IMG/VR virus record: IMGVR_UViG_2609459839_000006
Length of the DNA stretch: 18,736 bases
DNA from: a virus
Lineage: Duplodnaviria; Heunggongvirae; Uroviricota; Caudoviricetes
Direction: 5' to 3' (one strand)
The position numbers were made by a program, and so were the translations under genes. A model generated the notes under the pieces. It worked only from the letters and a program-made list of their open reading frames with translations, did not search any database and was not told where the DNA came from. Shown one piece after another: positions 13,469 through 18,736 of the stretch (positions are counted from its first letter, which is position 1; each line of letters starts with the position of its first letter).

Positions 13469-13720
13469 TTATTCTCCTGAAAAAGCAGAAAAGCCAGCTT
13501 TTATTCCGATCTCTTTCAATGCCTGTAATGAAGTGACAAACTCACCTTCGCGCAAGATAAATCCGTCCGTGACCCGAGCATCCACAAAATTAATTAACGC
13601 AGCCCCATTCTTTCGCAAACACATAATGCGGTAATGACTAACAAGATTTCCATTTTCAACGCACACAGCATAGAGGCCATCTTCACAAAAAATTTTACGC
13701 AGTTCTTCGATGTTCATCAT
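13469..13720 (-). CDS. rem: hypothetical prophage protein Rem
   Basis: 83-aa MMNIEELRKIFCEDGLYAVCVENGNLVSHYRIM...; tandem ATG ATG at 13715-13720 with GGAAGGA upstream. Confidence 0.75.
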   Translation of the reverse strand: MMNIEELRKIFCEDGLYAVCVENGNLVSHYRIMCLRKNGAALINFVDARVTDGFILREGEFVTSLQALKEIGIKAGFSAFSGE

Positions 13721-15991: not shown

Positions 15992-16810
15992 TCAATCTTT
16001 TTTATCGGGATCAGGCTTCTTTTTAGGTAACTTCGGGGGCTTAACTTGCTGATGACTTTGCGTTCGGCGCGTAAGCCAGGGATGGTCAGCTTTAGGTTTA
16101 ACATAGTATTTTGAGCGTAAATCAATACGGGCATTATCCACTCGTTCATGGACACTCTTTTCATCATCCAGTGGTATAGGCTCCGGGCCATCAACATACT
16201 TTTCCCAGCCCAGCGCTTTCCCGTCATACAGAACGTTAATTTCACCGTCAAAGTTCTCGCATACAGTAACAACCGAATGCCTAAGTCGATATCCCCGGCC
16301 CTCACTGCGTACCTGAAACGCACTGCTTTTGTACTGGAAAGTGAGATTTTTAGACAGAACGCGCTTCGCCTGTAGGCTGAAGATATAACCCAGTTCCTCT
16401 TCAGAATGGTGCACATCAAGATGAGCATTATCAGTAGTACGAGGCGACGTAGCGAACCGGTTGTTATAGGCTTCAATAAAGGTCGGCAACCATGCATTTG
16501 CTGTTTCAATATCACTGATATTCTGAAGCCGCATTTCTTTGACCAGCCTGTCCTGTAGTGTCTGATTGGCGCGCTCTACCCGCCCTTTTGCCTGCGGGCT
16601 GTTGGCATGGATTGGCTCGATGCCCAGTGTCTTTATCGCACGAGTGAACTGGGTCAGCTCACCTTCCCGCTCTGGGTTATTTACCCTGAATATACTGTGT
16701 CTATCAGAGTAGAGAGCGAGCGGTACGCCATGATCATTAAGGTAACCCCGGAGGGTTTCCATGTAAGCCCGGGTTGCCACAGCACATATCAAGAATGGTT
16801 GCCGGTGCAC
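15992..16810 (-). pseudogene. DDE (rve/integrase-core) transposase catalytic fragment, OrfB-like, interrupted
   Basis: 272-aa ORF with ..LALYSDRHS.. and ..SPQAKGRVERANQTLQD..; GTG at 16808-16810 is immediately preceded by in-frame TGA (16811-16813); same frame is open upstream to about 17089; possibly the K-12 intK remnant (from memory). Confidence 0.6.
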
Positions 16811-16977
16811 TCACTGCGCCACGTCCTGAAAATTACCCTGATAGAAAGCCAGTATGCGCTGCATAACTTCGCTCTTCCGGCACTCGCGACAGATTATGTT
16901 TAGGCGACTGTCGTAGCGACGTATTTCTCCGTCAGGTGATGACCAGATAAGGTCCGGATCAACCACAGCAGGTTTCT

Positions 16978-17331
16978 TCACCTTTGCCCTCGAGAGTTTT
17001 TTGCGGGCGTTTTGCCAGTCCTTACGCGCCTGTTCAGAGGGGAATAACCCGTAGCCTCCATAATTGCAGGCACTAGCGCCGTGAACTTTTCACGCTTATC
17101 CCTGGTGTCGATAGCCTTCCAGCGTTCAAATATCTTCACTCGATTAACGCCAAGCGCTCGCTGATCAATCGCGCCACCTTCATATGTGACACGCTGAACA
17201 TCGATGTTCGGGCGCTCTTTCAAAGCCCAGAATGCTTCAGTGATTAATATCGTCGCCTGCTCCTGTGTCATTCCTGGTCGACATATCCAGGCATCCAGAG
17301 CCTCACGAGCCTGTTCAGGAGTGATTTTCAT
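16978..17331 (-). CDS. OrfA-like upstream ORF of the IS-like element (117 aa)
   Basis: ATG at 17329-17331, overlaps dicC 3' end by 17 nt; ends TGA 16978-16980, 18 nt after heptamer A_AAA_AAC (minus strand, 16996-17002). Confidence 0.4.
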   Translation of the reverse strand: MKITPEQAREALDAWICRPGMTQEQATILITEAFWALKERPNIDVQRVTYEGGAIDQRALGVNRVKIFERWKAIDTRDKREKFTALVPAIMEATGYSPLNRRVRTGKTPAKNSRGQR

Positions 17332-17545
17332 TGTTCAACCGCCCCGCCCGCTTCGTCTTACGATATTCATCATAAACTTTGGGATCATACTGAAGCTCCC
17401 CGCCAGATGCCTCCTGTAGACGCATCGCGCGACCTTCGGGAACTAAATCCCCTTTCCAGCTATAAAGCGAAGCCAAACGAATACCTGCTGCTTGTGCAAG
17501 TTTTGTTTTTGAACCGAAATACAAAAGAGCGTCAGTTTTAAGCAT
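17315..17545 (-). CDS. dicC: Cro-like repressor DicC
   Basis: 76-aa MLKTDALLYFGSKTKLAQAAGIRLASLYSWKGDLVPEGRAMRLQEASGG...; ATG at 17543-17545. Confidence 0.9.
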   Translation of the reverse strand: MLKTDALLYFGSKTKLAQAAGIRLASLYSWKGDLVPEGRAMRLQEASGGELQYDPKVYDEYRKTKRAGRLNNENHS

Positions 17546-17559
17546 TTAAAACACCTTTA

Positions 17560-17579
17560 TTGTTAGTCATAACTAACAA
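17560..17579. promoter_or_regulatory. operator palindrome between divergent dicC and dicA
   Basis: TTGTTAGT-CATA-ACTAACAA, perfect 8-bp inverted arms. Confidence 0.7.
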
Positions 17580-17628
17580 GATAGATGTTAACAAAAACAT
17601 AGTCAATACGATTTAGCATTAGCTAACT

Positions 17629-18036
17629 ATGGAAACAAAAAATTTAACTATCGGCGAACGCATCAGGTATCGTCGGAAAAACCTCAAACACACCCAAAGG
17701 TCTCTTGCTAAAGCCCTGAAAATCTCCCATGTGTCTGTATCACAATGGGAACGGGGTGATAGTGAACCTACAGGGAAGAACCTTTTTGCCCTCAGCAAAG
17801 TATTGCAATGCTCACCAACATGGATTCTATTTGGCGATGAAGACAAGCAACCAACACCACCTGTTGAGAAGCCAGTTGCCTTATCCCCCAAAGAACTAGA
17901 GCTCCTTGAGCTGTTTAATGCACTGCCAGAATCAGAACAGGATACCCAGCTCGCCGAAATGCGAGCTCGAGTAAAAAACTTCAATAAACTCTTTGAAGAA
18001 TTACTAAAAGCCCGTCAGCGGACAAATAAAAGATAA
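17629..18036 (+). CDS. dicA: HTH-XRE repressor DicA (CI/C2-like)
   Basis: 135-aa METKNLTIGERIRYRRKNLKHTQRSLAKALKISHVSVSQWERGDSEPTGKNLFALSKVLQCSPTWILFG...; ATG at 17629. Confidence 0.95.
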   Translation: METKNLTIGERIRYRRKNLKHTQRSLAKALKISHVSVSQWERGDSEPTGKNLFALSKVLQCSPTWILFGDEDKQPTPPVEKPVALSPKELELLELFNALPESEQDTQLAEMRARVKNFNKLFEELLKARQRTNKR

Positions 18037-18096
18037 CATCATCAATGAGTTATCTTTTACCACATCAATTATGTTAGCTATAGCATACAAAATCAC

Positions 18097-18125
18097 TTGA
18101 CCGATATGTTAGTCATGGCTAATCT
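18097..18125 (+). promoter_or_regulatory. candidate sigma-70 promoter of the ydfABC (dicB) operon with overlapping operator-like site
   Basis: TTGACC (18097-18102), 17-nt spacer, TAATCT (18120-18125); spacer contains TGTTAGTCAT, identical to one arm of the 17560-17579 palindrome; related TGTTAGCTA at 18072-18080. Confidence 0.5.
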
Positions 18126-18202
18126 TGTTTGCATCAACACACCGCACGGTGTTCTCAGCAAACAGTTCCGCTACCCCAGCGTTAAGGGGAAATGAGGTCA
18201 GC

Positions 18203-18358
18203 ATGGATACTATCGATCTTGGCAACAACGAATCTCTGGTGTACGGCGTGTTTCCAAACCAGGACGGCACGTTCACCGCAATGACGTATACCAAAAGCAA
18301 AACGTTTAAAACCGAAAATGGTGCCCGTCGCTGGCTGGAAAGAAACTCAGGTGAGTGA
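18203..18358 (+). CDS. ydfA: small prophage protein YdfA
   Basis: ORF track 18125-18358; internal ATG at 18203 (MDTIDLGNNESLVYGVFPNQDGTFTAMTYTKSKTFKTENGARRWLERNSGE, 51 aa) with GAGGT at 18194-18198. Confidence 0.85.
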   Translation: MDTIDLGNNESLVYGVFPNQDGTFTAMTYTKSKTFKTENGARRWLERNSGE

Positions 18359-18359
18359 T

Positions 18360-18488
18360 ATGGATTTCGACACAATCATGGAAAAGGCTTACGAAGAATA
18401 CTTCGAAGGCCTTGCCGAAGGCGAAGAAGCTCTCAGCTTCAGTGAGTTTAAACAGGCGCTTTCCAGTTCGGCAAAATCTAACGGCTGA
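18360..18488 (+). CDS. ydfB: small acidic prophage protein YdfB
   Basis: Not in ORF track; ATG at 18360 gives MDFDTIMEKAYEEYFEGLAEGEEALSFSEFKQALSSSAKSNG (42 aa); TGA at 18486-18488. Confidence 0.8.
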   Translation: MDFDTIMEKAYEEYFEGLAEGEEALSFSEFKQALSSSAKSNG

Positions 18489-18517
18489 TAAGCGAAACAG
18501 CACCGCGAGGAATCAGT

Positions 18518-18736
18518 ATGCAGAAACGAGAACCCGTCATCATCGCGCCAGACTATACCGATGATGAACTTTATGAGTGGATGCGCCAGAAAATTAATGC
18601 AGCGCAGGATCTGAAATGGGCTAATGAAGCCAGGGCTAAGCAGGCTGAAAATCTGTCCGCTCTGGAGCAGGATATCACCAATCTGGAAAAAGCAGCGGCA
18701 TTAAGCATTGCCAGAATGATTACATACCCGCGTTAG
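18518..18736 (+). CDS. ydfC: prophage protein YdfC
   Basis: 72-aa MQKREPVIIAPDYTDDELYEWMRQKINAAQDLKWANEARAKQAENLSALEQDITNLEKAAALSIARMITYPR; GAGG at 18507-18510; TAG at 18734-18736 ends the window. Confidence 0.85.
   Translation: MQKREPVIIAPDYTDDELYEWMRQKINAAQDLKWANEARAKQAENLSALEQDITNLEKAAALSIARMITYPR

Follow-up and report, generated by a model that had tools for sequence, protein, structure and literature searches.

The window, by which we mean the whole 18,736-nt stretch of DNA analysed here, carries towards its right-hand end two divergent repressor genes followed by the start of an operon, with an antirepressor gene at lower coordinates. The genes are as follows:

13469-13720, minus strand: rem, antirepressor gene with an 83-aa product, mapping to K-12 rem (function from PMC10448788)
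17315-17545, minus strand: dicC, Cro-like second repressor (Pfam P22_Cro, E = 1.7e-11; PDB 1rzs, P22 Cro, E = 6.8e-6)
17629-18036, plus strand: dicA, repressor (Pfam HTH_3, E = 1.3e-16; PDB 1adr/2r1j over residues 7-71, E about 1e-19)
18203-18358, plus strand: ydfA, among the first genes of the dicBF operon (DUF1391 match, E = 1.7e-28)
18360-18488, plus strand: ydfB, among the first genes of the dicBF operon
18518-18736, plus strand: ydfC, among the first genes of the dicBF operon

Positions 17300-18736 were 100% identical to E. coli ATCC 8739 and 99.9% identical to K-12 MG1655, where the matching genes are annotated as dicC, dicA, ydfA, ydfB and ydfC. Across 17051-18736 the sole difference from K-12 was at 17796, within the dicA coding sequence, and one DicA protein accession is common to K-12 and ATCC 8739. 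Judged by this identity, the locus is the dic locus of Qin (Kim), a defective or cryptic lambdoid prophage of E. coli; the Oc operator 20-mer, the dicBp fragment and the genes are those of K-12, and nothing substantive differs. Because this is the K-12 dic locus itself, the switch was already known and its recognition amounts to a rediscovery of the published Qin dic system; the logic was published as early as 1988 and the key site was validated in 2012, so that no new biology arises from the switch as such. As had been supposed in the preliminary description, dicB lies beyond the window (in K-12 it begins 568 bp past ydfC). An 874-bp segment upstream of dicC (16177-17050) is present in the window and absent from K-12, and in a search with the whole window none of the complete E. 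coli genomes matched all 18.7 kb collinearly, the closest ones aligning in 5-6 pieces.

The genes dicC and dicA are divergent and have an 83-bp spacer in common, as in lambdoid regions of the P22 immC type, and the open reading frame after dicC belongs to the YdaT family (Pfam). DicA is a protein of 135 aa with a P22 C2-like HTH N-terminal domain (match to the P22 C2 N-terminal domain, E = 8e-20, in addition to Pfam Phage_CI_repr) and a short C-terminal domain. Pfam gave no Peptidase_S24 match in these 135 aa, and thus no sign of RecA-stimulated self-cleavage; an Ala-Gly site and mitomycin C induction are reported to be absent as well (PMC10448788). An intact rem at 13469-13720 places an antirepressor gene in the same prophage as this repressor without an S24 domain, the arrangement of a non-cleavable repressor under antirepressor control. 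Rem has been described as the antirepressor relieving DicA repression of dicBp, and spontaneous induction of dicBp as dependent on neither Rem nor RecA (PMC10448788). Both the P22_Cro and the 1rzs matches identify DicC as a Cro homologue, and no family match informative for an N-type antiterminator was obtained in Pfam for ydfA, ydfB or ydfC.

Regulation at the locus has been studied experimentally. Yun et al. 2012 (PMC3441716) cloned as Oc the exact 20-mer found here between dicC and dicA, and observed DicA binding in vivo and DicA-dependent repression; a single A-to-C change in Oc abolished DicA binding and its effect, and a mobility shift of the promoter fragment was seen with crude DicA-containing extracts. 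Oc overlaps the -10 element of the dicC promoter, and DicA on Oc activates dicA, while two further operators predicted from the sequence, Om and Oa, were not bound by DicA; a tenfold reduction in DicA raised dicC 700-fold and dicB 3,700-fold (PMC3441716). According to Ragunathan et al. 2023 (PMC10448788), which refers to Bejar 1988, operators resembling those of lambda PR/PL are present in both spacers. The same study reported that dicBp rose 22-fold without dicA and 165-fold with Rem, and described DicA/DicC as a bistable switch; as of 2023, DicA was only 'predicted' to bind operators overlapping dicBp (PMC10448788). A DicC ChIP-seq preprint (PMC11430063) placed the strongest DicC binding at this locus, with sites flanking dicA and a motif that is palindromic, TT(A/C/T)G...C(G/A/T)AA. 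A report of DicA physically bound at the dicBp sites was not found in the accessible literature, and the gSELEX and genetic-interaction papers that mention DicA hold no site-level data.

Comparative analyses were based on 74 loci of the Qin type, reduced to 53 distinct haplotypes of the dicC-to-ydfA region, on three non-Qin repressor types (BL21/KE58, JNE132847 and one with an unrelated 214-aa repressor), and on relatives in Citrobacter (73% DicA identity) and Serratia (64%).

The dicC-dicA spacer contains the following features:

17560-17579, no strand: Oc, proven DicA operator, spanning the -10 end and the transcription start of the dicC promoter, its sequence matching exactly the DicA-binding insert of pHL1105
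17578-17606, minus strand: dicC promoter from the promoter scan, TTGACT (17606..17601), 17-nt spacer, TATCTT (17583..17578)
17610-17629, no strand: Oa-like site, core TTAGCATTAGCTAA at 17613-17626, a TTAG-N6-CTAA match abutting the dicA start codon

The perfect operator palindrome previously proposed between dicC and dicA was found as described: TTGTTAGTCATAACTAACAA at 17560-17579 is a perfect 8-4-8 palindrome, occurs once in the window and had no match at up to three mismatches in any shuffled sequence. The published 5'RACE start of dicC fits the TATCTT -10 (PMC3441716). Within the 53 Qin-type haplotypes, Oc positions 2-7 and 14-19 were invariant apart from singletons. The Oa-like site was nearly invariant in the same set, is kept in the Citrobacter and Serratia relatives, and recurs in the BL21 and JNE types with a class switch at positions 8/13. 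Since DicA reportedly failed to bind Oa in spite of its perfect TTAG-N6-CTAA core, this core alone must be insufficient and the YYATRR centre must matter; conversely, failure of DicA to bind Oa (centre CATTAG) would be explained if a YYATRR centre belongs to DicA recognition. Oa (17610-17629) may instead be a DicC site. Om, read as ATGTT-N6-AACAT at 17585-17600, was rejected as an operator: its spacing differs, it is not kept in the BL21 or JNE types, and DicA did not bind it (PMC3441716). The constrained sites at the divergent promoters (OR) are thus Oc and Oa only, rather than three adjacent cooperative operators.

Beyond dicA, the 166-bp spacer that separates it from ydfA holds the following:

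18027-18059, plus strand: terminator-like hairpin at the end of dicA, 11-bp perfect inverted repeat (-11.8 kcal/mol, z = -5.07)
18071-18090, no strand: candidate distal dicBp operator, ATGTTAGCTATAGCATACAA, just 5' of the -35, 11/16 arm matches
18097-18125, plus strand: candidate dicBp core promoter, TTGACC, 17-nt spacer, TAATCT
18106-18125, no strand: candidate proximal dicBp operator, ATGTTAGTCATGGCTAATCT, occupying the spacer and extending over the -10, 11/16 arm matches
18131-18133, plus strand: probable dicBp start, 6-8 nt past the -10, in a conserved GCATCAA motif
18139-18189, plus strand: ydfA leader, hairpin ACACCGCACGGTGT (18139-18152) and overlapping 4-bp helices 18169-72/18178-81 and 18174-77/18186-89

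The Oc arm TGTTAGTCAT does recur exactly in this spacer, one base to the left of the 18108-18117 first given for it; at its corrected position, 18107-18116, it sits, as claimed, inside the 17-nt promoter spacer (18103-18119), between TTGACC (18097-18102) and TAATCT (18120-18125). The variant arm TGTTAGCTA is likewise present at 18072-18080. Over 16 nt the proximal site is 88% identical to Oc. The right arms of both dicBp sites are degenerate in the K-12 allele (5/8 and 4/8 matches).

Chance similarity in AT-rich intergenic DNA could produce such repeats, and the 7-mer TGTTAGY taken alone was not significantly enriched in the window (7 matches vs 4.2 expected; 23/200 shuffles reached as many). 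The longer motifs behaved differently from this 7-mer. With up to one mismatch allowed, the 10-mer arm gave 6 matches in the whole window vs 1.28 expected, a count attained in 0/200 shuffles. The TTAG-N6-CTAA core occurred three times vs 0.31 expected, always within the dicC-dicA and dicA-ydfA spacers, and 0/200 shuffles gave three. When all 18,717 20-mers of the window were scored by their matches at the 16 arm positions, only four other than Oc reached at least 11/16, two of which (18071 and 18106) lay in the 166-bp dicA-ydfA spacer, a clustering with a calculated P of about 4e-4. This enrichment, together with the constraint and co-variation described below and the experimental literature, refutes the chance reading, to which we attach practically no probability. 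The 20-mer at 18125-18144 (10/16 arm matches) was considered as a third dicBp operator and dismissed, since polymorphism affects positions 3, 4 and 7 of its 'arms'; dicBp has two constrained sites in the 53 Qin-type haplotypes, not three.

A further exact copy of the arm was observed at 13634-13643 on the minus strand, inside rem, where the 11-nt Oc half-site TTGTTAGTCAT occupies 13634-13644. It was rejected as an operator, being a half-site only: the other half matches at 3-4/10 positions.

The candidate promoter TTGACC-17-TAATCT was not listed by the promoter scan, its -10 being weak (3/6 matches) and its overall score of 8/12 below threshold; the scan listed only the minus-strand dicC promoter (TTGACT-17-TATCTT, 17606..17578). 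The operon could conceivably be driven by another element in the dicA-ydfA spacer, of which TTACCA-16-TATAGC at 18057-18084 was noticed by eye, or by read-through from dicA, with the operator-like repeats merely incidental. We consider this very improbable. When the primers of PMC10448788 were mapped onto the window, the 113-bp out-of-locus dicBp-lacZ fragment corresponded to 18037-18149 and the in-locus fusion arm to 18094-18134; since these promoter-active fragments intersect there, the DicA-repressed promoter must lie within 18037-18134, an interval that holds TTGACC-17-TAATCT and both operator-like sites. TTGACC was invariant in the 53 Qin-type haplotypes, and the layout of -35, operator and -10 recurs in every immunity type, being shared by the BL21, JNE, Ecol_542, Citrobacter and Serratia loci. 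The strong hairpin at 18027-18059 stands between dicA and the spacer and would shield dicBp from dicA read-through; its stem is longer, via paired changes, in variants of 93% identity. TTACCA-16-TATAGC itself was rejected as a promoter, as 18060-18063 are polymorphic, TATAGC lacks the final T and the scan did not list it.

For TTGACC-17-TAATCT we infer a transcription start at about 18131-18133, within the GCATCAA motif. A mapped dicBp start site was not found in the accessible literature, and back-calculation from the published RNase III site '813/814' and the 190-nt DicF gives 18127-18133 if that numbering begins at +1. Downstream of it, the helices of the ydfA leader are conserved, with 94.6% of cells paired and three double changes, a modest degree of covariation support; an Rfam search of 17300-18736 returned chance-level matches only (E above 2), leaving the leader without a family.

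Both dicBp sites show the same pattern of constraint as Oc. In the 53 Qin-type haplotypes the arms of the proximal site were invariant apart from singletons, and the TGTTAG arm of the distal site had one singleton change; the site centres and the adjoining outside positions (17558, 18070 and 18103) do vary. The Citrobacter and Serratia relatives keep an Oc-type palindrome, an Oa-type site and both downstream sites, the latter 36 bp apart, with a TTGCCA or TTGCAA -35 exactly 6 nt 5' of the proximal-site TTAG. In every type, and in these two relatives, the distal site lies 35-36 bp upstream of the proximal one. As this is no whole number of helical turns, lambda-like cooperative binding is not implied.

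Many E. coli genomes have the ydfA/ydfC/dicB module in common and carry a different repressor. The BL21/KE58 type, with a repressor 56% identical to DicA, has TTGTTAGACTTTTCTAACAT at OR, TTGTTAGATCAATCTAACAA at the distal position and ATGTTAGGTTATTCTAAATT at the proximal position of the second early promoter beyond the repressor gene (OL), the distal one being the best palindrome of that locus (26 bp, perfect). In the JNE132847 type (repressor 61% identical to DicA) the outer arm is CCTTAG, and the outer arm (TGTTAG vs CCTTAG) follows repressor helix 2. Position 8 is a pyrimidine and position 13 a purine at all three sites (OR, OL-distal and OL-proximal) of the Qin type, whereas the BL21 and JNE types (50 and 43 haplotypes) have a purine at 8 and a pyrimidine at 13, again at all three. 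This 8/13 class follows repressor helix 3, SHVSV vs AHVTI, in 8/8 lineages: ISHVSVSQWE is found in the repressors of Qin, Citrobacter and Serratia, and VAHVTISQWE in those of the five R/Y lineages. On this co-variation, the pairing of operator positions 8/13 with helix 3 is likely to constitute a specificity code. The type with the unrelated 214-aa repressor uses another palindrome, ATCTAA...TTAGAT, which flanks its gene and is also present within a TTGACT-17-TAGATT promoter of its own. Homology to the window resumes at GCATCAA in the DicA-like types and at 18165 in the unrelated 214-aa type, and because it resumes only there, promoter and operators must travel with the repressor as one cassette. 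In each case a single operator family is found at the divergent promoters and at OL, and co-variation at all three sites is what one would expect to see were Oc and both dicBp sites bound by one and the same protein.

It could be argued that only the proximal site (18106-18125) works as a DicA operator, and that the distal one (18071-18090) is a DicC-specific site or a decaying relic. The distal right arm, GCATACAA, is imperfect in K-12, predicted operators without DicA binding have a precedent in Om and Oa (Yun et al. 2012, PMC3441716), and the DicC ChIP-seq peak downstream of dicA fits either dicBp site (PMC11430063). Against this, the near-invariant left arm of the distal site is accompanied by a centre that obeys the YYATRR, transitions-only rule of Oc; in the variants of 93% identity the site comes near the consensus (ATGTTAGTCATGACAAACAA); its BL21 counterpart is, as noted, perfect; and its 8/13 class switches together with repressor helix 3. 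We therefore regard a non-DicA role for the distal site as improbable, if somewhat less so than a promoter elsewhere in the spacer.

The explanation that best accounts for the locus, and in which our confidence is high, is the Qin immunity switch with DicA acting at Oc and at two dicBp sites, DicC opposing it and Rem relieving it. In this explanation DicA, in the form of a symmetric oligomer, binds sites of 18-20 bp that read TGTTAG-YYATRR-CTAACA. On Oc it would cover the -10 end and the start of the dicC promoter, turning dicC off and activating its own weak promoter, effects that the literature has demonstrated. Dimers of DicA on 18071-18090, abutting the -35, and on 18106-18125, in the spacer and over the -10, would bracket or occupy dicBp, so that RNA polymerase would be excluded and ydfABC-dicF-dicB kept silent; that DicA represses dicBp, and where this promoter lies, the literature has demonstrated, and the direct occupancy of both dicBp sites we infer from sequence, conservation and co-variation. 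DicC, located by published ChIP-seq on both sides of dicA, represses dicA, which makes the switch bistable. With a DicA that has no self-cleavage domain, the switch is flipped by Rem, by DicA instability or spontaneously. The preliminary description had likened the locus to lambda, with one repressor controlling, in the manner of OR and OL, both the divergent switch and the dicB operon. The published model, the site constraint and the co-variation all speak for that control; a full copy of lambda it is not, given that Om and Oa do not bind DicA, that dicBp has two sites and that DicA has no RecA-cleavable domain.

By homology of DicA and DicC, the locus belongs to the P22 immC type. DicA residues 7-71 resemble the C2 DNA-binding domain and DicC resembles P22 Cro, the genes are divergent, and palindromic operators, conserved in their arms and variable in the central block, stand at the divergent and the leftward early promoters. 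Unlike C2, which has 216 aa (PMC10448788), DicA has 135 aa and no S24 domain; the Qin half-site is TGTTAGY, there is one established DicA-binding site at OR and there are two sites, not three, at OL, and an N-type antiterminator is unrecognisable downstream in Qin from the family matches of ydfA, ydfB and ydfC.

Lambda offers the parallel of one repressor governing a divergent switch and a distant early promoter, and of an immunity cassette that ends at a mosaic boundary between promoter and leader. In lambda the distance from OR to OL is 2.4 kb, compared with about 0.5 kb in Qin. CI and DicA have no sequence homology beyond the HTH class, and Qin has neither a tripartite cooperative operator nor RecA cleavage. 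As in lambda, repressor bound to the cro-proximal operator shuts off the cro-like gene and stimulates expression of its own (PMC3441716), and a Cro analogue gives bistability (PMC10448788). The racR/ydaS-ydaT region of Rac, another cryptic E. coli prophage, similarly sets a CI-like repressor opposite a Cro-like gene that has a YdaT-family gene after it (PMC11879457), but differs in its repressor and operator sequences and has no dicB-type division-inhibitor operon under a second promoter. Inactivation of a repressor without a cleavage domain by the prophage-encoded antirepressor Rem recalls the Gifsy-type systems, from which Qin differs in that spontaneous induction of dicBp is independent of Rem and RecA (PMC10448788).

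The Qin switch is a textbook-style domesticated prophage circuit, deciding the expression of DicB and DicF and with it a block of cell division and altered phage susceptibility and metabolism. To this, sequence comparison makes modest additions: base-level comparative support for two dicBp operators, a likely specificity code and recurrent change of the operator centres.

Concerning the last of these, centre positions 8, 9, 12 and 13 of all three sites were polymorphic in the Qin type in 12/12 cases, by transitions only. The centres accumulated 5.75 parsimony steps per site vs 0.44-1.54 at third-codon positions (about 4 to 13 times more), and, while making up 1.1% of sites, they accounted for 10/23 differences (43%) between haplotype pairs differing at no more than two sites, the pairs being non-independent. 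The pattern is weaker in the BL21 type and almost absent in the JNE type. A tentative reading, which we would not rate as the likelier outcome, is that the centres are hotspots of recurrent change held to a pyrimidine-left/purine-right class, through which natural Qin alleles may retune affinity by indirect readout of the 434/P22 type, with the 8/13 class and helix 3 setting heteroimmunity. Alternatively, mutation alone could account for the hotspot, e.g. templated mutation in a quasi-palindrome, acting under a weak class constraint. Recurrent, transition-only change of operator centres may in itself be new.

Natural variants were also seen in which ydfABC is deleted, with or without dicF and dicB, the deletion beginning at or just past the promoter.

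The dicA start codon is adjoined by a site resembling Oa, listed here with its core:
17610-17629 (core 17613-17626), Oa-like site TTAGCATTAGCTAA

Almost no variation was seen at this site among the Qin haplotypes, and it is also retained in Citrobacter and Serratia, while its class at positions 8 and 13 changes with immunity type. Binding of DicA at Oa has been reported to be absent (PMC3441716). By analogy with lambda, we suggest that the Oa-like site is a candidate high-affinity site for DicC, the Cro-like repressor, and would be the counterpart of OR3.

In each of the three DicA operators, the centre was a hotspot of recurrent change:
17567-17572, centre of the Oc operator
18078-18083, centre of the distal dicBp operator
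18113-18118, centre of the proximal dicBp operator

Positions 8, 9, 12 and 13 were polymorphic in each of the three among the Qin haplotypes, with transitions only, and the dyad AT was invariant in the same set. Operator-centre positions required 5.75 parsimony steps per site, versus 0.44-1.54 for third-codon positions, and accounted for 43% of differences among near-identical haplotypes (those separated by two sites or fewer; the pairs are not independent). In BL21-type loci this variability was less marked, and JNE-type loci had next to none.

An exact 11-nt half-site of Oc was also located inside rem (13469-13720), the gene for the DicA antirepressor:
13634-13644, minus strand, Oc half-site TTGTTAGTCAT

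It lies approximately 77 nt into the rem coding sequence, the opposite half of the site is non-palindromic, and the estimated chance expectation for such an exact half-site is roughly 0.01-0.04 in the window.

The dicB-operon promoter, dicBp, is flanked by two potential RNA structures:
18027-18059, terminator-like hairpin spanning the dicA stop codon
18139-18189, ydfA leader, with conserved hairpin ACACCGCACGGTGT and two overlapping 4-bp helices

The dicA-end hairpin has a perfect 11-bp stem (-11.8 kcal/mol, z = -5.07), which in variants of 93% identity is longer through paired changes and is then followed by TTTTT. The two leader helices (18169-18172 with 18178-18181, and 18174-18177 with 18186-18189) are arranged in pseudoknot order just 5' of the ydfA ribosome-binding site. 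For the leader, 94.6% of cells were paired, with three double changes. The leader had no match to an Rfam family. Homology shared with the unrelated immunity type starts within it, at 18165.

Natural deletion variants had junctions in the same region (window coordinates):
18124, junction in loci L020 and L023
18173, junction in locus L019
18185, junction in locus L021

In L020 and L023, DNA 76 bp upstream of dicF was joined to the dicBp -10 element, a fusion through which ydfABC is lost and TAATCT becomes TAATCC. L021 was without ydfABC and dicF, and L019 without ydfABC, dicF, dicB and ydfD.

One segment of the window is missing in K-12:
16177-17050, 874-bp segment

Here the window is non-collinear with both K-12 and ATCC 8739. 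The segment is made up of an ISNCY-family transposase fragment and DNA lengthening the YdaT-family ORF after dicC, which thereby reaches 117 aa; a whole-window search found no complete genome matching the entire window as a single piece.

Finally, a DicA of 99% identity, flanked by DNA of the E. coli type, is encoded on a contig of 2.5 kb that carries a Collinsella MAG label (L004, JAIIUG010000151.1); this most likely represents E. coli contamination of the bin.
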